A stretch of DNA of 64,000 nt from Octopus vulgaris (taxonomy: Eukaryota), in the NCBI GenBank assembly GCA_951406725.2, contig OX597825.1, positions 55,986,001 to 56,050,000 of the forward strand, written 5' to 3'. Shown piece after piece: positions 3,141 through 62,480 of the stretch. The notes under the pieces are model-generated. The model had not been told where the DNA came from, ran no database searches, and saw only the letters and a program-made list of their open reading frames with translations. The first letter of the stretch is position 1, and every line of letters begins with the position of its first letter. The translations under genes were made by a program, and so were the position numbers.

Positions 3141-3144
<4 letters not shown>

Positions 3145-3550
3145 AGTGGCTGTGTGGTAAGTAGCTTGCTTACGAACCACATGGTTCCGGGTTCAGTCCC
3201 ACTGCGTGGCTCCTTGGGCAAGTGTCTTCTACTATAGCCTCGGGCCGACCAAAGCCGACCAAAGCCTTGTGAGTGGATTTGGTAGACGGAGACCCCGTCG
3301 TATATATGTGTATGTATATATAAGTGTGTGTATGTTTGTGTGTTGTGTTTGTCCCTCCCCCCAACATCGCTTGACAACCGATGCAGGTGTGTTTACGTCT
3401 CCGCAACTTAGCGGTTCGGCAAAAGAGACCGATAGAATAAGTACTAGGCTTACACAGAATAAGTCCTGGGGTCGATTTCACCGACTAAAGGCGGTGCTCC
3501 AGCATGGCCACAGTCAAATGACTGAAACAAGTAAATGAGTAAATGAGTAA
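3141..3550 (+). mobile_element. tRNA-derived SINE, family A (full length)
   Basis: A-box-like TGGCTGTGTGG, B-box-like GGTTCAGTCCC, CCTTGGGCAAG motif, GAGTAAAT-repeat tail; homologous copies at 10415, 14961, 17863, 26250, 61664. Confidence 0.9.
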
Positions 3551-3580
3551 ATATATATGCATATATATATTTATATACAT

Positions 3581-3869
3581 AGTGCTAGTCAACACCAACG
3601 TTGCTAGAAATAAGGATCAAAACAACTCTTAGTCACATGGGAACACTTTTCTAATGACTAATGACTAACAAGAGATCATTCAATGTTTCCCCTGGCTGAC
3701 AGAGTCACTGATGAAATATTAATCAAATCTGAAATCAGTGCTGATATGACCCAATCTCGCTTGTCTTAGGCAGCGGGCTTTTGTTCTTTGTCAGTCGTTA
3801 GAAAAGTGCCCTCATATGGCTAAGAATTGTTCCGACTATTATTTCTAGCAATGTTGATGCTGTGGCACT
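3581..3869 (+). repeat. ~290-bp foldback element with ~80-bp inverted arms enclosing a hammerhead motif
   Basis: caacaccaacgttgctagaaataa...cacttttctaatgact (3590-3659) is an imperfect reverse complement of 3793-3862. Confidence 0.8.
3704..3750 (+). ncRNA. Type I hammerhead ribozyme-like motif (stem II degenerate)
   Basis: GTCA-CTGATGA-[aatattaatcaaatct]-GAAA-TCAGtgCTGA-TA-TGAC: stem I GTCA/TGAC, canonical core, stem III hairpin, AUA cleavage triplet. Confidence 0.7.
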
Positions 3870-4706
3870 CTCCGTCACCTGTTGCCTTAGTAATTTTCTA
3901 TGTTTTGAGATTGTGTCTGGGGTGGTGGTGTCGATGAGGTGTAAGATACACGTCTTTTGATAAAAAATTGTTTTTTTATAAATTGTTTTTTTATATATTT
4001 TAGTTTGGGAGTGGAGATGGGTGAGATCATGCTAGCTCACATATTTACTTCCCTGCAAATAATAAACAAAAGTATATATACATATCTCTTTCTCTTTCTT
4101 CCTCTGTCACGTGTGTGCGTGTGTGTGTGTGTGTGTGTGCGTACACCACCAACCCAGACACACACCTGAAACAGAAAATTACTAAAAGAAAGAATTTGGT
4201 AAAACAGCTGGCCATTAGATTTTTGACCAAAGGTCAACTATTCAAATGACTTCATAAAACATTCTTTAACATTCCACCACCTCCCAACTCCACCCCAATC
4301 CAATATATCGTGTTGACTGACAACTCACTACTTTCTTCCAGCTATCATTCATCAACAGTTTTTCCCTCCCACATTGAATAACAAAGCCCAAACGCACTCA
4401 AATCCCGTAAATAGAATCACAAAGCCCCAAATTTTCAGATCTGATTGACAACGAATGCGAGAAAGTTCTCAAAAAATGTTAACAAGGAACTTTTTAAAAA
4501 AATATCCCCACTCAAGTTAACAAAGAATCTACTAGACCTATGAACTAAAGTCTAAAATTTATATTATTAAAAAATAATAAATTAAACTTATTAGACCTAC
4601 CAGTGAAGTCATTCCTTTCCTTTTTTCAAATATACCTAACTGTACCAAGGATCTCACATGTTTGACTAGGGTATCAAGAACACCTACATTGCTAGGAATA
4701 AGAGCT

Positions 4707-4807
4707 AAAATGCTCTAATGCTGTAGTTAAAGCACTAGTCGACTACAGTCTCTGTCAGTACATATGTATACAATTATGTGCTTTAACTACAGTATAAGTG
4801 CATTTTA
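4707..4807. repeat. ~100-bp hairpin with ~30-bp inverted repeats (MITE-like)
   Basis: taaaatgctctaatgctgtagttaaagcac ... gtgctttaactacagtataagtgcatttta. Confidence 0.6.
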
Positions 4808-4829: not shown

Positions 4830-5580
4830 CCAGGATGGAAAAGACCCTGGAAGAGACTTGATTGTTGGATATTGATACAAGAAGCTAACCTTCTATCGAC
4901 CATATATTATCAATCTGTACCAGCAAGCTCTCAATTGGAACTGTAGCATACCACACTGGTTAGCTCTGGCAGAGACAAAATTGATCCCCAAATGCAGAAC
5001 CACTCACATGGCAAAACACTACCGGCTAATTGCATGTCAGAACATAATGTATAAGATATATAGATCATGCTTAAACCTCTTCCTCCAGGACCATTGTGAA
5101 ACAAATAACATTATCACAACAAAGCAAGCAGCTGGGAAGACGGGAGTCGGAGGATGTGCCGAGCAATTGTTAATCAACAAAATTGTGATGTCAAAGGTGC
5201 GAGAGCATAGGGGAAACCTAGTTTCAATGTGGCTAGACTACTGAAAGCCTTTGACTCTGTTCTCCACTCATGGATGCTAGAAGCCCTACAACTTGCTACA
5301 GTTTCAATAAGCATAGTTAAAGCGACAGCTGACCTTACTTCATTATGGGCCACCATCTTGAAATTAAGCACAAAAAATGACTGTATTATCACTGATAGAA
5401 TACTGTATCGCAAAGGCATATTCTAAGGGAAAGCCTCTTTGTGATGTTTATACTTACTGTAAACTTTTTTTCATTCATGTTAAGGAAGTCTGAAGGGTGT
5501 CTCACTGGTTCACAATGAAACAGAAAAACCAATGTTTCTTTTTGGATGACTTGAAACTTTATGCAAATAATATACAAGAG
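4830..5580 (+). pseudogene. R4/Dong-like LINE reverse transcriptase fragment
   Basis: ORFs 4981-5244 and 5229-5426: HYRLIACQNIMYK...GCAEQLLINK...WLDY/KAFDSVLHSW...KGIF, then FLDDLKLY-like motif near 5540; frameshifts and stops. Confidence 0.85.
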
Positions 5581-8469: not shown

Positions 8470-9689
8470 CAGATGTTGGACAAAATAATGGAAACATAGC
8501 ATCATAAGTTTGAGATATCTATAAAAACCTCAAAAGCTTGTTTATTTTTATGTGTTTCGATTTATTATCAGCGTTGCTTAATATGTTTCGCTAAAATTGC
8601 TGTTTCTTTTCAGATATCATCAGAAATAGGCAATTAAAATTCATTAAAAAGCAGATCTATCGGACTTTCAAACAGATCAAATTATTGATGCTCGTATGGC
8701 AGGTGCTAGCATAACGAAAACTGTACTGTCTCGAAAGTTATGACAGCCTTTGAGAAAGAGGGAAAAACCTCCTCGTCGAAACAAAACAGCGGAAGAAAAC
8801 CAAAACTTTCAGATAGGGACCGTCTGACTCTTACGCGAATTGTTAGAAAGGATCACAAAAGTACAGCTCCCGAAATTACTGCAGAGATTAATAATCACCT
8901 CGAGAGCCCAGTTTCCACTAAAACTGTTTACCGGGAGCGTCCAAAGCCGGATTTCACGGGAGAGCTGCAATCAGAAAACCACTGCTTTCAAAAACAAACT
9001 TTGCAAAGCGTTTAGAGTGGAGTAAAAACCTACATAATTGGTCCTAGAGCAGCGGAAGAATGTTATTTTCGCGGACGACTCATCCTTTACCTTATTTCTG
9101 ACCATCGGCAGAGTATACTTGTAGAGACAGCCAAAAGAAGCATTTGAGCCAGACTGCCTTCTTCCAACTTTTAAAGATGGAGGAGGATCTGTGATGATCT
9201 GGTAGGGGGCTATATCTTGGAAATCCGCCGACCCAATGGTTTCTCTTCATGGCAGAATTAATAGTCACGACTATTTAAGCATTTTATCTGATCAAATTCA
9301 TCCTATAGTTGCAGAACTGTTTCGGGAGGGAAACGCAATGTTTCAGAATGATAATGCACCAATACACACAGCTAAAGTTGTTACTGAATGGCACGAGGAA
9401 CATCTTATCTGGTCACCACAGTCCCCAGATCTCAATATTATTGAACATTGATGGTGGATTTTAGAAAAACAAGTGAGGAGTCTGATATCCTCCACTATCA
9501 TCACTACAAGAATTGGAGACTGTTTTAGCTGAAGAATGGACAAAACTTCCTTTAGAAACAATTCAAACTTTGTACGAGTCCATACCTCATAGAATTCAAG
9601 CTGTAATTACTGCCAAAGGCGGTCCTACTCCATTTAATATAAATTTGTTTGAAATGTTAAGGTGTTTCCATTATTTTGTCCAACCCCTG
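8470..9689 (+). mobile_element. Tc1-like DNA transposon, near full length, transposase pseudogenised
   Basis: 27-bp TIRs cagatgttggacaaaataatggaaaca / tgtttccattattttgtccaacccctg, TA flanks; SGRKPKLS, FADDSSF, FQNDNAPIH, WSPQSPDLNIIEH, AVITAKGG spread across several frames. Confidence 0.93.
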
Positions 9690-9720
<31 letters not shown>

Positions 9721-10248
9721 ATGTATGTATGTATATATATATGTATGTATGTATATGTATGCATGTATGTATATACAAATGTAAGTAGGTAGGTAGGTAG
9801 GTAGGTAGGTAGGTAGGTATCTGATTGGTTGACAAAGTTAGTGACTAGCTAACACATCCTTTACAAATGCATTCTGTAATTGGAATAACAAATGAAGACA
9901 AGGTCTTTTCTTTTAGCAATTTTCGTTGTTATCGAAATTCCTTGCAAAGTATCTCCGTTTCTTTGTCATAAACCAGTTTCATACTTGTAGGGTGAATTTA
10001 AATAATTTAAAACAAACACGAACCCACATGCATGTGAGGAATTTGGTTATTGTTACACAGAAGCAGAAAAGACACGGCTAATTAAGCTATTGCTATAGCA
10101 AACCATTTCTGGATAGTTGAAGATGTGTAACTGATGAAGATATGTAACTGATTTATATCCTTATTTGCAGTCTTACAAAAATGTTTGAGCATCTTGCAGA
10201 TGCGGCAGTGTGGTAAGGAATTTGCCTCCCAATCACAAAGCTCCGGAG

Positions 10249-10332
<84 letters not shown>

Positions 10333-10414
10333 TGTGTGTGTATATGTATATACATACACACACACGCACACACACACATATATATATGTGTGTGTTTGTG
10401 TATATATATACGTA

Positions 10415-10573
10415 CGGTGGGCTTCTTTCAGTTTGCGTTTACCAAATCAACTCACAAGGCTTCGATCGGCTCGAGGCTATAGTAGAAGACACTTGCCCAA
10501 AGTGCCACGCTGTGGGACTGGACCCAGAACCATGTGGTTGGGAAGCAAGCTACTTACCTCACAGCCACTCCTG

Positions 10574-10577
<4 letters not shown>
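10415..10577 (-). mobile_element. SINE family A, 5' half
   Basis: Reverse complement of the 3141 copy head. Confidence 0.85.
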
Positions 10578-10612
<35 letters not shown>

Positions 10613-10618
10613 ATATAC

Positions 10619-10667
<49 letters not shown>

Positions 10668-10669
<2 letters not shown>

Positions 10670-10885
10670 GGGTGGCCCAAAAGTAGGTTTACATTTACAG
10701 TTATCACATAGACACTTTAAACTTCTTTTAAAACCTTTTATTACATATAAATTTTTATCTTACAATCAACTAAATTAGCATAAAATAATGGCTTCATATA
10801 TTTTTATAATTAAGATCTAAACTGTTAATATATGAATGCAAAAGTGATAGTTAAATAACTGTAAACCTACTTTTGGGCTACACTG
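10668..10885. mobile_element. 218-bp Tc1/mariner-type MITE
   Basis: 26-bp TIRs cagggtggcccaaaagtaggtttaca / tgtaaacctacttttgggctacactg, TA on both sides. Confidence 0.88.
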
Positions 10886-17863: not shown

Positions 17864-18244
17864 TCTTTTCCTTGTTTCAGTCCTTTGCCTGCGGCCATGC
17901 TGGAGCACCGCCTTTAGTTGAGCAAATCGACCCCAGGACTTATTCTTTGGAAGCCTTGTACTTATTCTATCGGTCTCTTTTGCCGAACCGCTAAGTTACA
18001 GGGACGTAAACACACCAGAATCTGTTGTCAAGCGATGTTGGGGGGACAAACACAGGCACACAAACATATACACACACATACATATATACGACGGGCTTCT
18101 TTCAGTTTCCGTCTACCAAATCCACTCACAAGGCTTTGGTCGGCCCAAGGCTATAGTAGAAGACACTTGCCCAAGGTGCCACGCAGTGGGAATGAACCCG
18201 GAACCATGTGGTTGGTAAGCAAGCTACTTACCACACAGACACGC
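17863..18244 (-). mobile_element. SINE family A, full length
   Basis: Close reverse-complement match to 3141-3550. Confidence 0.9.
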
Positions 18245-18578
18245 TTTATAATCATTACGTGCATGTTCAATCCTACGGCGTGACATTTTGTGTAAGTATA
18301 TCGTTGCCTTAGCATAGCATTAACCCAAGCCTTTCCGCGAATTTAACCTGAGAATTACCACATGGGTACACGAAACTGTGGGCTACACACGACCATTAAC
18401 AGCAACTAGTTCAGTTACTCGAACATCTGACATGCTCATTGTCAGAATCGACGGAAGATCCATCATCTATGTGTGTGTGTGTTTGTGTGTGCGTGTGTGT
18501 ACGTGCGTGTGTGTATGCACATGTATGCGTCTATGTATATATACATATAGACATAAATATATATACATACGCATAAAC

Positions 18579-21654: not shown

Positions 21655-21918
21655 AAGGCGGCGAGGTGGCAGAGGCATAAGCACGTCGGAAAGAAGATTA
21701 GTGGCATTTCATCAAGCTTTACGTTCTGAGTTCAAATTCTGACAAGGCCGACTTTGCCTCTCATCCTTTCAGGGTCGATAAAATTAGTACTGGGCAAGCA
21801 CTAGGGTCGATCTAATAGATTAACCCTACCTCAGCAATTTTCAAGCCTTGTGCCTACAATAGAAAGGATTAAGGGAGTGAGTTGGCTGAACCGTTAGCAT
21901 GCCGGACAAAAATGCTTT
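21655..21918 (+). mobile_element. SINE family B copy followed by a second SINE-B head
   Basis: Full copy 21655-21870, then head aagggagtgagttggctgaaccgttagcatgccggacaaaatgcttt. Confidence 0.85.
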
Positions 21919-23960
21919 GCGTCAGTAGCTTGGTCGGAGAAGTGCAAACGTGCGCAATCCCGAGCAGGTCTACCCACGACAACCTCCTCCTAATGCGATA
22001 CATCATAGAGAGGGCTTGGATTAAAGCTGACTCCGCGGATGTTCTGATCAATTTGGATCAATCGAAAGCATTCGATAGGGTCGACCATCACTATTTGGAA
22101 GCCGTCCTGAAAGCAGGTGTTTTCGGACTCGTTTTCAGAGTCTGGATCGCTGCAATGCACAGCGGCACCTGTTCATTGGTCAAAGTAAATGGTGACCTAT
22201 CGGAGCCGTTTGGCATCGCAGGCTCGGTCCACCAGGGCTGCCGGCTGTCGCCTCTTCTGTACGTATTGGGACTCAATCCACTTCTGCGAAAATTAGAACA
22301 GTTCAGGGGCACCCCTATCGAACTGGGACAAAGAGGGGCATTGTCAACATGCGCGGATGATGTCATTGTCGTAGTGTCGGACGCCTTCGAAGTGGAAACG
22401 CTAAAATCAATACCGACAATCGGTGGATTTGCAGTTGGGCTCCTGCAGATGGAGGACGACGCCATCGGACGGCCTCGTCGGACACTGGACCGAAGGACAA
22501 GTTAAACTGTTCGGGGTCTGGTTTGGTCCCGACCTCCATGTTGATAAGAACTGGGACGATGTGGCGAACAGGGTGGCCAGTCTTACCCAGAAATGCACTG
22601 AGAGGAAGCTGTTCTTGAAAGATCAGGCAAAGGTGGTGAATGCCTACATCGCCTCCGTTATCATTTATCGCCTGACTGTCGTATCTTGTCCCGATTACTG
22701 CTTGACTAGGTTGGAGCGTCACTTATTTAAATTCCTGTGGAAGGGATGCCTTCTAATGGACATGCGGTCAATTTTTATTGCTAGCATCTTCTGAGTGGCG
22801 GATTAAGTATGCCGTAGCTCATAATACGCAGACATGCTCTTAGATTACGCCACATGCAACGATTTCTGGATGGTGAGCGTGTGTAGGCTCCGTTTGTGAG
22901 GCTCGTCCTTCCGCAGCTCATCACTTTGACTGAGTTACAGTCGTGAGTGAAGAAAAGAACGAGACTGGGCACCTGGTACCTAGAATGTCGTCAGGCGCTC
23001 ACAGCTCTCTACCAGTAGGGCAATAGGATCGGTGGATGTTCCGCTTTAGAAATTTATAGAGGTTTAGTGGCGGGTAATTGCGACGACTTTCCCGGAGAGA
23101 TTCTTGGCACCGACAAAAAGGAACCGGCTAGACTGTTCTGGGAGGACTTTCCAGTCTGGAATTATCATGGATAATTTCCAGTTGTCCTTGGCCTGACAGT
23201 GTTACCGAGCGGCGCTACCGGTTCGAGATAAACTCTACAGGCACAAATGTGCTGTCAGACGGACTTGTTCGAGGTGCGCGCAGAGTGATGAAACTGTTCT
23301 GCACATACTAGTTCAGTTCCCGGGCATTGCTGATTACTTGTGGGGTTATGTCGAAAAGCTGCTGTCACGTGTGGGACGCATCTGCCTATCGGCTGAGTCA
23401 GCAGTGACGATTATTCCGTCGCCCTCCTTGAATCGGGAGGGCAAATAAGTTTTCCGTTGCCTGGTGACCGTAGCGAAAGAGGCTGTTTTGTGGACAAGGC
23501 TGAAAGACATGAGGACAGATACATCCGTCTTTGGTAGAGCTCTCATTAACTTCCTCAAGTTTCACTTGGAAAAGAAGCTGAGAGTGGAGAGCGAAGTGTT
23601 GTCCTCGAGTGAGTTTATTGAAATGAGAGGGTGCAAAAATGGTAAGAGTAGATAGTACCTCTCTCAGTGAAGATCTGTAAGTCGGAGAGAAGGAATTGGA
23701 GAGGGAAATCTCAGACACTGGGATTCCTCGATTATCCCTAGAGGTCTTCCTGCATCAGGAGGGCTATATCTCTATCATTCTCACCGCCCCACTTTTTTAA
23801 AAAATCTATGTATATGTTCCTTCTTTTCCTGTGTATACCGACCGTGTATACTTACCTTTCCCTTTAATTTTATCATTTCATTATATGTAAACCCCCAAAC
23901 TTTATGTTTGTCTTTGTATTGTCTCCCTCATCCTTCACCCTTGTGGCAAATAAATGAAAA
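21919..23960 (+). mobile_element. 5'-truncated L1/Tx1-clade LINE (RT to 3' UTR), pseudogenised
   Basis: QTCAIPSRSTHDNL, NLDQSKAFDRVDH, SVHQGCRLSPLLY, CADD, KLFGVWF, C-terminal CSRC..ETVLH Zn knuckle, pyrimidine-rich 3' UTR ending in AATAAA. Confidence 0.9.
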
Positions 23961-44935: not shown

Positions 44936-45008
<73 letters not shown>

Positions 45009-45013
<5 letters not shown>

Positions 45014-46645
45014 AAACAAGTAAAAAATAGAAAATGCTAAAATAATTTTATAGTGAACATTTCAGTACCGGTTTCGGTCATTTTGAGACCTTTTCAACTG
45101 TAACGATTAAATAATTAAATTTAGAAAAATTAGAAGAAAAGTTTTTTTAAAAGAATATTTCTATAGTAGTGTTCAGATTTAGGTGGCATTCTGCCTTTCT
45201 CTGACTCCCTTGTTTGCACTTGTGTGTTCGAGGTAGTTGTGAGTTCTTGGTAGGGTAGTAGAGGGAAGGCTGGTGAGGAAAGGGGGTGGGAGAATCTGGG
45301 AGTGCCCTGATGGTCGTATTTTGAATGGTCAGTGGCGGCTGGCAGTCTCAGTTCAATTCAGGATTGTTTATAGAATTAGCGTAGGTGTTATACTAAAAAA
45401 CATTAGTGACAAACTTAAGGGGTAGGGGGTGGAGAAGAAGAAGAAGAAGAAGGAGAAGATGATGGTGATGGTGGTGATGACTATGACGACGATGATGATG
45501 ATAACGATGATGATGAAGAAGAAGAAGAAGAAGAAGGAGGAGAAGGAGAAGATGGTGGTGATGATGGTGGTGATGATGATGACGCCGATGATGATGATAA
45601 CGATGATGATGAAGAAGAAGAAGAAGAAAAAAACAGAGAAGGGAGAATATGAATGGGTGTAAATATAGCTATGAAGGGGCTGATTAGTAATGGATTCTAT
45701 GGAGTGTAGTATTTGTGTGTGTATATATATTTTTTTCTTTTATTCTAAAGTTGAGGTATATTAATTGTTTGTCGTAGACCCGTTAAGAAGTGGCTTGTAT
45801 TTTGTAATAAAGAGATTTTCTTTACTTATTCTTTGTCTCGAGGTTGTATCGTCCCTAAATTGGTAGAGGGGGAAAATTCTGAAGTTTGGTGTTTTTTTGT
45901 TGGCGCAAGTATCTATGTGTTGGCTAAAAGCTATTTTTCTGTTTTGGGGAATTTTTATCTGGGATCTGTGCAGGGCCATTCGTTTACGCAAACCATTTTT
46001 TGTTTGGCCTATGTACTGCTCTTGACACCCGGAGCAGGTTAGTGAGTATATTAGGTTCTCCGAAGCACATGTGAAGTTGCTTTTCACTGTAAACCGTTGT
46101 CCCTGTTTGAAGGAGAACTCAGAACCCTCGATTAGATAGTCGCATATCCCGCAATTGGGTCTTCCACATTTTTTTACTGTCGGCTTCTGTGTTGAAGAGT
46201 GAATTCGGGCTTGTGTAAGGAGACTTTTCATGGATCTAGGCTGTCTTTTGCTTTTTATGATCGTGTGTGTTTGGAGGATTGTGTTCATTCTGTGGTCTTT
46301 TTTAGGAGGGGTATGTTGTGGAGGATGGTGTCGAAGGCTTCGTTATTGAGAGGGTTGTGTGTGGAGATGTATGGTAAGGCTTTTGGTTGTAAGTTTTTCT
46401 TTGATTTGGGATGTCTCAGTTCCTTGATGTTAAGTTGAAGGGCACGTTGAATGCACTTGTCAATAAGTGAAGGTGGATAGTTCCTGGTGATTAGGGTATC
46501 TTTTAGTTCTTGTAGTCGTGTGTCTCTGGTGTTTGCGTTAGAGACTATAGTGCATATCCTTTTGCTAGATTGAAGGGGATATTCATCCTGGTGTGTCTGG
46601 GATGGCATGAATTGAATGGAAGATATTGCTTAGAGTCTGTAGGCT
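45009..46645 (-). repeat. Inverted copy of the PLE 3' half (RT thumb, GIY-YIG, 3' UTR)
   Basis: Minus ORFs 45761-46288 and 46285-46608 reproduce the C-terminus of the 641-aa protein; the only differences seen are two 1-bp homopolymer deletions (~46290, ~46560). Confidence 0.95.
45063..45100 (-). ncRNA. Minimal type I hammerhead ribozyme (U3-A8 variant), inverted-arm copy
   Basis: Exact reverse complement of 49249-49286. Confidence 0.75.
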
Positions 46646-46650
46646 GAGTT

Positions 46651-48588
46651 GAATGGGCTGAGTTGAACAAATTAAAACTAGATAAAACAATAACAATCAA
46701 AGAGGCCGATAAAGGGAGTGCTGTTGTCTTAATGGATACGACATTTTACATAACTTTGGTACTTTCTATGCTGGAAGACACAACATACTATGAAAAGGCA
46801 CAAAACTACAGTCAACAAAAAATAATGAGGGAACTAAAATCCATATTAAACCCATACAAAGCAGGGCTCACCGACAAAGAATATGATTATATGACCAATT
46901 TCACAAGTAAAACTAGCCAATTCTACGGTATACCTAAGATCCACAAAAGTGAAAAAATAAGCAACGCATGCAAGATAGCTACAGACAAAATAATTAAAGT
47001 CCCTAATCCTAATGACCTCAAATTGAGACCCATAATAGCAGGTCCCGCATGCGAAACCCACCGCCTCAGTAACTTTTTAGACACCCTGTTAAAACCACTC
47101 CTCAAACATGTCAAAAGCTATATAAGGGACGACTTAGATATGCTCAATCACCTACCGAATACTATAAACAAAAACACCATACTGGTATCCTTCGATGTAG
47201 TCAACCTCTACTCCAATATCCCCCACAACCTAGGACTAGAGGCAATCCAATTCTGGCTAGAGAATCACGCCAACGAACTACCACACCGCATCAAAAAAGA
47301 ATTTGTGATAGAAGGGGTTAAATTCATCCTGGAAAATAACTTCTTCGCCTTCAATGACAACTTCTACCGACAAAAATCGGGGACTGCGATGGGTACACGA
47401 ATGGCCCCCTCCTTTGCCAACCTAGTCATAGGATACCTAGAGATCAGTCTGTATCGTAAGGTTCTAGAAAGATATGGCAGCCCTTTCTCCATCTACATAG
47501 AAAACAACTGGAAGAGATATCTAGATGACTGTTTCATCCTTTGGCATAAAAATATAGAAAAACTCATAGAATTCCAGAAAATTTTAAACGGACTGGACGT
47601 AAACATCCAATTCACGATGGAATATAGCCAACAACAACTCCCCTTCCTCGATATCCTCATTAAGAAAGCTAATAATATAATAGAAACAGACATATACTAT
47701 AAGCCTACAGACTCTAAGCAATATCTTCCATTCAATTCATGCCATCCCAGACACACCAGGATGAATATCCCCTTCAATCTAGCAAAAAGGATATGCACTA
47801 TAGTCTCTAACGCAAACACCAGAGACACACGACTACAAGAACTAAAAGATACCCTAATCACCAGGAACTATCCACCTTCACTTATTGACAAGTGCATTCA
47901 ACGTGCCCTTCAACTTAACATCAAGGAACTGAGACATCCCAAATCAAAGAAAAACTTACAACCAAAAGCCTTACCATACATCTCCACACACAACCCTCTC
48001 AATAACGAAGCCTTCGACACCATCCTCCACAACATACCCCTCCTAAAAAAAGACCACAGAATGAACACAATCCTCCAAACACACACGATCATAAAAAGCA
48101 AAAGACAGCCTAGATCCATGAAAAGTCTCCTTACACAAGCCCGAATTCACTCTTCAACACAGAAGCCGACAGTAAAAAAATGTGGAAGACCCAATTGCGG
48201 GATATGCGACTATCTAATCGAGGGTTCTGAGTTCTCCTTCAAACAGGGACAACGGTTTACAGTGAAAAGCAACTTCACATGTGCTTCGGAGAACCTAATA
48301 TACTCACTAACCTGCTCCGGGTGTCAAGAGCAGTACATAGGCCAAACAAAAAATGGTTTGCGTAAACGAATGGCCCTGCACAGATCCCAGATAAAAATTC
48401 CCCAAAACAGAAAAATAGCTTTTAGCCAACACATAGATACTTGCGCCAACAAAAAAACACCAAACTTCAGAATTTTCCCCCTCTACCAATTTAGGGACGA
48501 TACAACCTCGAGACAAAGAATAAGTAAAGAAAATCTCTTTATTACAAAATACAAGCCACTTCTTAACGGGTCTACGACAAACAATTAA
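46651..48588 (+). CDS. Penelope-like reverse transcriptase + GIY-YIG endonuclease (5'-truncated, uninterrupted)
   Basis: IKEADKG, FYGIPKIHK, LRPII, SFDVVNLYSNIP, GTAMGTRMAPSFANL, RYLDD, LPFLDILI, YYKPT, SCHP; Cys-rich linker CGRPNCGIC..FTC; LIYSLTCSGCQEQYIGQT..R...H..H..E; frame opens at the junction (EWAELNKLK) with no native ATG. Confidence 0.95.
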   Translation, partial: EWAELNKLKLDKTITIKEADKGSAVVLMDTTFYITLVLSMLEDTTYYEKAQNYSQQKIMRELKSILNPYKAGLTDKEYDYMTNFTSKTSQFYGIPKIHKSEKISNACKIATDKIIKVPNPNDLKLRPIIAGPACETHRLSNFLDTLLKPLLKHVKSYIRDDLDMLNHLPNTINKNTILVSFDVVNLYSNIPHNLGLEAIQFWLENHANELPHRIKKEFVIEGVKFILENNFFAFNDNFYRQKSGTAMGTRMAPSFANLVIGYLEISLYRKVLERYGSPFSIYIENNWKRYLDDCFILWHKNIEKLIEFQKILNGLDVNIQFTMEYSQQQLPFLDILIKKANNIIETDIYYKPTDSKQYLPFNSCHPRHTRMNIPFNLAKRICTIVSNANTRDTRLQELKDTLITRNYPPSLIDKCIQRALQLNIKELRHPKSKKNLQPKALPYISTHNPLNNEAFDTILHNIPLLKKDHRMNTILQTHTIIKSKRQPRSMKSLLTQARIHSSTQKPTVKKCGRPNCGICDYLIEGSEFSFKQGQRFTVKSNFTCASENLIYSLTCSGCQEQYIGQTKNGLRKRMALHRSQIKIPQNRKIAFSQHIDTCANKKTPNFRIFPLYQFRDDTTSRQRISKENLFITKYKPLLNGSTTNN

Positions 48589-49248
48589 TATACCTCAACT
48601 TTAGAATAAAAGAAAAAAATATATATACACACACAAATACTACACTCCATAGAATCCATTACTAATCAGCCCCTTCATAGCTATATTTACACCCATTCAT
48701 ATTCTCCCTTCTCTGTTTTTTTCTTCTTCTTCTTCTTCATCATCATCGTTATCATCATCATCGGCGTCATCATCATCACCACCATCATCACCACCATCTT
48801 CTCCTTCTCCTCCTTCTTCTTCTTCTTCTTCTTCATCATCATCGTTATCATCATCATCGTCGTCATAGTCATCACCACCATCACCATCATCTTCTCCTTC
48901 TTCTTCTTCTTCTTCTCCACCCCCTACCCCTTAAGTTTGTCACTAATGTTTTTTAGTATAACACCTACGCTAATTCTATAAACAATCCTGAATTGAACTG
49001 AGACTGCCAGCCGCCACTGACCATTCAAAATACGACCATCAGGGCACTCCCAGATTCTCCCACCCCCTTTCCTCACCAGCCTTCCCTCTACTACCCTACC
49101 AAGAACTCACAACTACCTCGAACACACAAGTGCAAACAAGGGAGTCAGAGAAAGGCAGAATGCCACCTAAATCTGAACACTACTATAGAAATATTCTTTT
49201 AAAAAAACTTTTCTTCTAATTTTTCTAAATTTAATTATTTAATCGTTA

Positions 49249-49286
49249 CAGTTGAAAAGGTCTCAAAATGACCGAAACCGGTACTG
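49249..49286 (+). ncRNA. Minimal type I hammerhead ribozyme (U3-A8 variant) in PLE 3' pLTR
   Basis: CAG-TTGAAAA-GGTCtcaaaatGACC-GAAA-CCGG-TA-CTG: stem I CAG/CTG, palindromic stem III ACCGGT, GUA site after 49283. Confidence 0.78.
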
Positions 49287-49373
49287 AAATGTTCACTATA
49301 AAATTATTTTAGCATTTTCTATTTTTTACTTGTTTTTTCATATATATCAACTCGTGTGTTCCTTTTCACCCTT

Positions 49374-49466
<93 letters not shown>

Positions 49467-61663: not shown

Positions 61664-61861
61664 TCTTTTATTGTTTTACTTGTTTCAGTCATTTGACGGT
61701 GGCCATTTTGGAGCACCACCTTGACAAATCGACCTCAGGAATTATTTTAAAGTCTAGTACTTATTCTATCGATTTCCTTTGCTGAATCTCTAAGTTACGG
61801 GGATGTACTCGCATGACTGCTTGATGTCAAGCGGTGATGGGGGGGTGCAATCACAGACACT

Positions 61862-61896
<35 letters not shown>

Positions 61897-62068
61897 GTAT
61901 ATACCGTGGGCATCTTTCAGTTTCCGTCTACCAAATCCACTCTCAAGCCTTTGGTCGGCCCGAGGATATAGTAGAAGATACTTGCTCAAGCTGCCACGCA
62001 GTGGAACTGGACTCAGATCCATGTGGTTGGAAAAAGCAAGCTCTTTACCAGACAGCCACGCCTGCGCC
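61664..62068 (-). mobile_element. SINE family A, diverged full length
   Basis: Matches 17863-18244. Confidence 0.85.
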
Positions 62069-62129
62069 TACACATACACACACACAGCGCGCACGCACAC
62101 ACACACATATATATATGTTAGTGTGGGAC

Positions 62130-62480
62130 CGGATGAATTGGTGGCTTTGGAATCCACTTGGCTTTATTATGATCCGACAAGGATACGCTGTCGATCCCGA
62201 CAAGTACTCTGCACATTTTACGGTGAAAAGCAGGCCGGCAGATTAGCGCTGTAGAATACAAAGTCATGTAAAATGGTAGAGCCGAACCACACACTCGTCA
62301 ATCTCGGACAAGGCGAAATGGAGTACGTCGATAAGTCTAAATATCTCAGAAGGTGTATTTGCAGCGACGGTGATACGGATGTTGAAGTCAAGACAAGGAA
62401 AGTTAACGCAATGCCAGTATTTCTACTCCTGTCAAAGATCATCTGCTTAAAGATAAATCTACGGCTATCTCCGCCAGTGA
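62130..62480 (+). pseudogene. RTE-like LINE fragment (post-RT region)
   Basis: VNLGQGEMEYVDKSKYLRRCICSDGDTDVEVKTR resembles the LE.VD.F.YLGS.I..DG...EV..RI motif. Confidence 0.55.

Follow-up and report, generated by a model that had tools for sequence, protein, structure and literature searches.

The hairpin and its surroundings

The window, by which we mean the whole 64,000-nucleotide stretch of Octopus vulgaris DNA analysed here, carries a hairpin with a hammerhead motif at 3581-3869 and, at 45002-49380 on the plus strand, an autonomous Penelope-like element (PLE) that is unrelated to the repeat unit described below. The PLE was recognised by its reverse transcriptase (RT) and GIY-YIG domains, which lie in one frame at 46648-48588 (+). 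Elsewhere in the window are decayed RT fragments, one at 21873-22794 with an RVT_1 match at 21873-22502 and a further one at 4876-5244, and a Tc1/mariner-like HTH fragment at 8710-9015 (HTH_32, 8710-9012). An abundant SINE-like repeat with a tRNA-like head occupies 3143-3530 and recurs near 10217-10711, 17918-18283 and 61838-62254; the copy at 3143-3530 is presumably of the octopus type. Rfam matches to snoRNAs and miRNAs stayed below the gathering scores and fell mostly in simple repeats.

Positions 3581-3869 are predicted to fold into one hairpin of -110.4 kcal/mol (z = -8.9), a stability reached by none of 200 shuffles, which bears out the rod-like fold proposed in the initial annotation. 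The minus strand also folds (-116.8 kcal/mol, z = -9.6), since any DNA inverted repeat folds on both strands. The inverted arms, about 80 bp long, differ almost entirely by transitions, as had been noted before: 15 of the 16 mismatches in 78 aligned columns are of this kind, an excess over the 66% share in the family background (p = 0.012). As A.C mismatches (9) outnumber G.U pairs (6) when the arms are read on the plus strand, the excess is not tilted towards RNA pairing. Compared with the family consensus over 76 gap-free columns, eight positions changed in the left arm only, eight in the right arm only and two in both. Neither this independent change nor the preponderance of A.C over G.U points to selection for pairing in an RNA.

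The letters of a type I hammerhead are present on the plus strand at 3704-3750, where the initial annotation placed them. Stem I (GTCA, 3704-3707) leads into the core CTGATGA (3708-3714), followed by a damaged stem II, the core GAAA (3731-3734), a near-palindromic stem III (3734-3745), the AUA site with predicted cleavage after 3746, and the closing strand of stem I (TGAC, 3747-3750). The core is perfect in this copy. Stem II, already described as degenerate, is broken by a 1-nt insertion and a substitution and has no predicted pairing, and the hammerhead of the window copy is predicted not to fold. An Rfam scan of the window returned no hammerhead match. The assembled sequence is repeated without change over 3721-3990 in a contig of DNA run X5, which does not span the left arm and may come from the source sample itself.

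A family of 343-nt head-to-tail repeats

A query of the whole genome (2.8 Gb) with 3575-3900 gave matches on many chromosomes, most of them running from the hammerhead rightwards and lacking the left arm in the same orientation. Together with two later DNA searches this yielded 54 distinct loci; each DNA search scored 40 of 431-2009 candidates, and the queries behind these first 54 loci favour inversions or junctions. When the loci were aligned, a head-to-tail repeat with a unit of 343 nt emerged. The unit has 43% GC and no frame above 37 aa, and neither a B box nor a tRNA was found in it. Its circular fold has a z of -4.9 (-5.1 for the minus strand), with 61% of the bases paired. The initial suggestion of a multicopy, non-coding, retrozyme-like family bearing a hammerhead stands.

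A 29-letter pattern of the hammerhead core has 43 exact matches in the genome, and its reversed control has none. Fourteen of the 43 lie in loci already known, and the other 29 form a second set, chosen without regard to inversions or junctions. Since 12 of 53 sampled matches spanning the hammerhead fit the pattern when read by eye, the 43 matches translate into a rough minimum of about 190 copies with a hammerhead. The family thus numbers on the order of hundreds of copies. The copies and tandem arrays that the initial annotation proposed to look for were found in part: copies are many and include partial tandems, but the largest head-to-tail tandem is 2.1 units, and none of the 43 core matches lies in an array of at least three units, a result to be read with the fact that assemblies can collapse arrays. 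A few loci hold two hammerhead regions, and none has two consecutive hammerheads that are strictly intact by our own descriptor, which comprises the hammerhead core plus three stems.

Identity to the consensus is 74-93% in long pieces. CpG sites decayed fastest (25% changed, against 9%), and we read the decay of the copies as neutral ageing. Near-identical, and hence young, copies were absent among the sampled loci, and the family looks inactive in the Octopus vulgaris genome and is probably extinct there. Core bases diverge by 6.5% as against 9.3%, a measure biased by the fact that the copies were found by matching the core region. In three sequencing runs guessed to be RNA, longer contigs include diverged family pieces, which has no bearing on expression or circles (junctions between units are present in the DNA as well), and the absence of the window copy from the contigs of two such runs likewise says nothing on expression. 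Sequence words of the family occur in runs carrying five organism labels.

The window copy as a decayed insertion with an inverted piece

Against the consensus, the window copy reads as an inverted stretch of the unit from 267 back to about 174, followed by a forward stretch, interrupted by several deletions, that runs from about 24 to about 317. A TA-rich simple-repeat tract at 3550-3580 is the likely insertion target, as judged from its sequence and from the simple repeats at the ends of other family members. The left arm (3582-3672, minus strand) is an inverted piece of the unit (about 174-267) that is specific to the window copy; its part at 3582-3659 is 87% identical to the reversed consensus. 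Next comes a remnant of the 5' part of the unit at 3675-3703 (+), starting at unit position 24 or so, which has suffered two large deletions and includes what is left of the distal part of stem I. The hammerhead at 3704-3750 (+) is followed at 3751-3878 (+) by the unit body up to position 277, which contains the right arm (about 3792-3869), and 3704-3878 is 84% identical to the consensus. A short remnant at 3879-3896 (+), of uncertain alignment, would represent the deleted 3' end and tail of the unit (about 293-317). A 30-nt inverted fragment at 4681-4710 also resembles the unit (83%, E = 0.026) and may be an older relative or a chance match.

The real unit of 343 nt is circularly permuted relative to the 290-nt rod, and the window copy lacks a large part of the 5' strand of the hairpin proper to the family. 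The rod at 3581-3869 is almost certainly an accident of one insertion, in which a second, inverted piece of the unit came to lie in a decayed and internally deleted copy.

The family hammerhead and its predicted fold

All parts of a type I hammerhead are present in the consensus, including a five-pair stem II and a palindromic stem III, so that stem II is restored at the level of the family, as the initial annotation had asked. Our descriptor matches the consensus and none of 20000 dinucleotide shuffles of it. A perfect core is kept in 25 of 53 family matches and all three stems in 14 of 53. Rfam hammerhead models gave no match in the seven loci with the best-kept copies (E up to 0.5). Stem I of the consensus continues past bulges into a separate hairpin of about 150 nt (unit 50-199). 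The family thus does place a hammerhead at the end of a long stem, as first described; the stem is a different one from that seen at 3581-3869, and most of its 5' strand is missing from the window.

Several observations bear on whether this fold was maintained. In the distal stem, the pair 58-192 is A-U in 30 copies, G-U in 12, G-C in 11 and A.C in 3, and the pair 75-176 is A-U in 18, G-C in 15, G-U in 12 and A.C in 3. Covariation exceeds that of all 500 of 500 shuffles, with 89% of cells paired. Controls with a slid register show two-sided changes in as many pairs as the true register, and the compensatory changes amount to about three events inherited by subfamilies, so that few are independent. 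Among 16 common non-CpG variants, five keep predicted pairs, four break them and seven lie outside them. In a subfamily of five loci (L012, L016, L029, L053 and L056) a G-C pair of stem III is replaced by U-A with the palindrome kept, a change that could also come from DNA template switching. For the consensus itself, the fold predicted to be more stable, by 5.6 kcal/mol, is one that ties up the catalytic core in pairing with stem III; the two-sided change in the five loci weakens this predicted inactive fold. Both this preferred fold and the missing Rfam matches speak against activity. We hold it very likely that the hammerhead was functional in the source elements.

Anatomy of the insertions

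The 3' ends of the family favour two places. Across the 54 loci, the forward copy stops at unit 336-343 in 36 cases and at 290-306 in eight, and both sites are TA-like. The copies are 5'-truncated, with variable 5' ends. The junction between units is crossed in 35 of 54 loci, mostly without a gap, and in 8 of 29 loci of the second set (both counted from BLAST pieces), and five loci (L024, L034, L108, L115 and L141) cross the ribozyme site twice. We also considered insertions that stop at the ribozyme cut, as a linear cleaved template would give, and rejected this idea because several loci pass the cut twice.

An inverted piece is present at 13 of the 54 loci and at 6 of the 29 (19 of 83 in all), with differing breakpoints, and in the first set the inverted piece always lies 5' of the forward copy. 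These insertions carry a tail of 40-50 nt at one end only. In the first set, all nine inverted loci with both ends in 285-343 combine one short end (289-303) with one long end (314-343), and short forward ends are found in 6 of 13 inverted loci as against 2 of 41 others (p = 0.0014). The one-sided tail was seen in two of three informative loci of the second set, one of them read from the flank by eye, and the third, L144, has two short ends. Derived changes are shared between the inverted pieces of a locus 33 times against 12 expected, and between tandem pieces 47 times against 30 expected, a modest excess.

Simple repeats are the likely targets. A TA-type repeat lies at the 3' end in 30 of 54 loci, compared with a background of 10-12%; the bias is weaker in the second set (7 of 29, p = 0.04), where a dinucleotide repeat of any kind is found at 21 of 26 ends against a background of 39%. 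No consistent target-site duplication was found, flanking direct matches of at least 6 nt being present in 4 of 54 loci. Partial tandems, an inverted 5'-truncated copy, a one-sided tail of 30-40 bp and microsatellite targets have been described as marks of PLE insertion (Craig et al. 2021, PMC8557442). With 5' truncation, partial tandems, an inverted 5' copy, a one-sided tail and microsatellite targets all present, the octopus copies were likely inserted by the machinery of a PLE.

The PLE of the window and the search for a partner

The PLE at 45002-49380 shows much the same anatomy. It has an inverted 5' copy at 100% identity and is flanked on each side by (TA)n, and its tail of about 30 nt is confined to the right end. 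Its frame is 646 aa long in this truncated copy and 784 aa in full copies elsewhere, and its CX4CX2C linker fits the motif given for Neptune/Nematis elements (Craig et al. 2021, PMC8557442). Over 300 aa, more than 50 copies in the genome are identical, from which the family appears to be very young and probably active now. Another PLE family has a similar tail in 5 of 17 copies. Hammerhead-like motifs that keep three stems and a palindromic stem III occur at about 49247-49290 in the window PLE and in the 3' regions of the PLE loci L068-L087. The cores of these motifs are altered (UUGAAAA and UUGAUAA as against CUGANGA) and are conserved across copies of young families.

Neither the window PLE nor any of 30 GIY-YIG loci shares DNA with the unit, and scores of the 3' regions did not exceed those of shuffles. 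In 49 loci of about 3 kb each, no PLE protein match lies beside the unit; in 29 loci of 6 kb there is one weak PLE protein match about 2 kb away, and the upstream flank is not shared. The PLE searches scored 150 of 6136 and 131 of 17130 candidates. With no sampled PLE having sequence in common with the unit, the case for a partner comes from architecture only; such a partner may exist or be extinct.

Discussion

The locus is best explained by a 343-nt non-coding hammerhead repeat that was likely inserted by the RT and endonuclease of a PLE, with the hairpin as an inverted duplication in one decayed copy; we hold this reading as a whole to be likely. That a PLE was the mobiliser is, taken by itself, quite likely. 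Under this scheme, source copies would have been transcribed, the hammerhead would have cut the RNA to unit length and the RNA would have been closed to a circle. The PLE endonuclease would then nick a (TA)n tract, and the nick would prime on a TA-like site of the RNA, at unit position 293-296 or so or at 343, some 150-200 nt from the ribozyme cut. Reverse transcription would run 0.5-2.1 turns round the template. In roughly a fifth of insertions, a second, shorter cDNA would be primed by the other target strand and so give rise to the inverted arm. We lean slightly towards a circular rather than a terminally redundant linear template because the junction is regenerated in many loci, the cut is passed twice in some and no array of at least three units was found. 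Whether the family is an array-less retrozyme, its copies being direct records of a PLE reverse transcriptase rolling round a ribozyme-made circular RNA, can be put forward only tentatively, at somewhat less than even chances.

A strong predicted fold and a share of transitions among the arm mismatches above the family background might suggest a viroid-like RNA in the 290-nt rod, as the initial annotation had supposed. This has to be given up as a feature of the family. Only 19 of 83 loci have the inverted arm, their breakpoints differ, and the arms of the window copy decayed independently, with more A.C than G.U mismatches; moreover, the minus strand folds better and stem II is broken in the window copy. 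We consider the viroid-like reading very improbable. Still less credible is a MITE, that is, a non-autonomous DNA transposon with long terminal inverted repeats, which the arms of about 80 bp beside a TA-rich tract would resemble. The inverted arm is missing from 64 of 83 loci, the ends are not fixed inverted repeats, and the copies are 5'-truncated partial tandems. The census of loci thus found neither fixed TIR ends nor consistent target-site duplications, in agreement with the initial preference for another explanation over a MITE.

Two further explanations keep the PLE and change its relation to the unit. The unit might be the terminal repeat (pLTR) of an autonomous PLE and the copies its 5'-truncated ends. 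Every insertion mark is indeed of the PLE type, the frog retrozymes are homologous to pLTRs (Li, Clavereau and Pollet 2026, bioRxiv 10.64898/2026.07.22.740005), and the PLEs scored were a fraction of the candidates. However, copies that extend beyond unit position 1 continue into the 3' end of the unit itself (35 of 54 loci and 8 of 29), none of 49 loci has a PLE protein match and the one in the 29 longer loci is weak and about 2 kb off, and those 29 loci have no common upstream flank; we therefore find a pLTR origin unlikely. Alternatively, element and mobiliser could be as we propose and the template a linear, terminally redundant transcript with a mostly inactive ribozyme, or the tandems could result from repeated template jumps. 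Partial tandems of this kind are also made by autonomous PLEs (Craig et al. 2021, PMC8557442), fold prediction for the consensus favours an inactive form, and most insertions are shorter than two units. Seamless junctions in many independent loci and the double crossing of the ribozyme site in five of them argue in the other direction, as does the lack, among the 43 core matches, of an array of at least three units that could serve as linear master, with the proviso that assemblies can collapse arrays. We judge this alternative to be slightly more doubtful than a pLTR origin.

With PLE mobilisation as the preferred reading, the octopus repeat is likely a new non-LTR retrozyme family, for which cleavage and circles are predicted. 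PLEs have been proposed as the helpers of retrozymes (Cervera and de la Pena 2020, PMC7229834). The non-LTR retrozymes of animals described there, notably the 350-390-bp repeats of mussels, resemble the octopus unit in being non-coding, 150-450 bp long and below 50% GC; both have head-to-tail copies, a self-paired monomer, a complete stem II in their type I hammerhead and PLEs in the same genome. The octopus family differs in that no multimer arrays were found (at most 2.1 units), its copies being dispersed partial tandems with PLE-type inversions and tails, and in having a long palindromic stem III, no target-site duplications and no young copies. EN+ PLEs of the Neptune/Nematis type (PMC8557442) share with the unit 5' truncation, partial tandems, an inverted 5' copy, a one-sided tail, microsatellite targets and a hammerhead near the 3' end. 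Unlike them, the octopus unit lacks a coding frame and is only 343 nt in its entirety. It also has no DNA similarity to the 3' regions of the PLEs sampled here, and its core is the canonical CUGAUGA, whereas those of the sampled octopus PLEs are altered.

Vertebrate retrozymes have been described as non-autonomous derivatives of PLEs (Li, Clavereau and Pollet 2026), and the same relation of parasite and helper is proposed here. The evidence differs in kind: in frogs it consists of co-occurrence and pLTR homology, and in the octopus, an invertebrate, of insertion anatomy without homology. The open-access papers we searched contain no description of the 343-nt family or of a cephalopod retrozyme, and repeat libraries or supplements may list the family without a name; the text available for PMC13282606 does not contain the word 'ribozyme'.

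The hairpin at 3581-3869 is in itself ordinary, and it illustrates how convincingly inversions of the PLE type can mimic rods and MITEs. The helper of animal retrozymes is still mostly deduced from co-occurrence and pLTR homology, and the octopus family is therefore worth recording: a tiny hammerhead unit bears the marks of PLE insertion, the one-sided tail included, in a genome that also houses a very young PLE family. If the array-less reading is correct, PLEs would be identified as mobilisers of retrozymes from the anatomy of insertions alone, without shared sequence. The insertion mechanism of PLEs has been described as having no system for work in vitro (Craig et al. 2021, PMC8557442). 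On the array-less reading, the 343-nt unit would also offer a minimal substrate for studying how PLEs generate tandems, inversions and tails.
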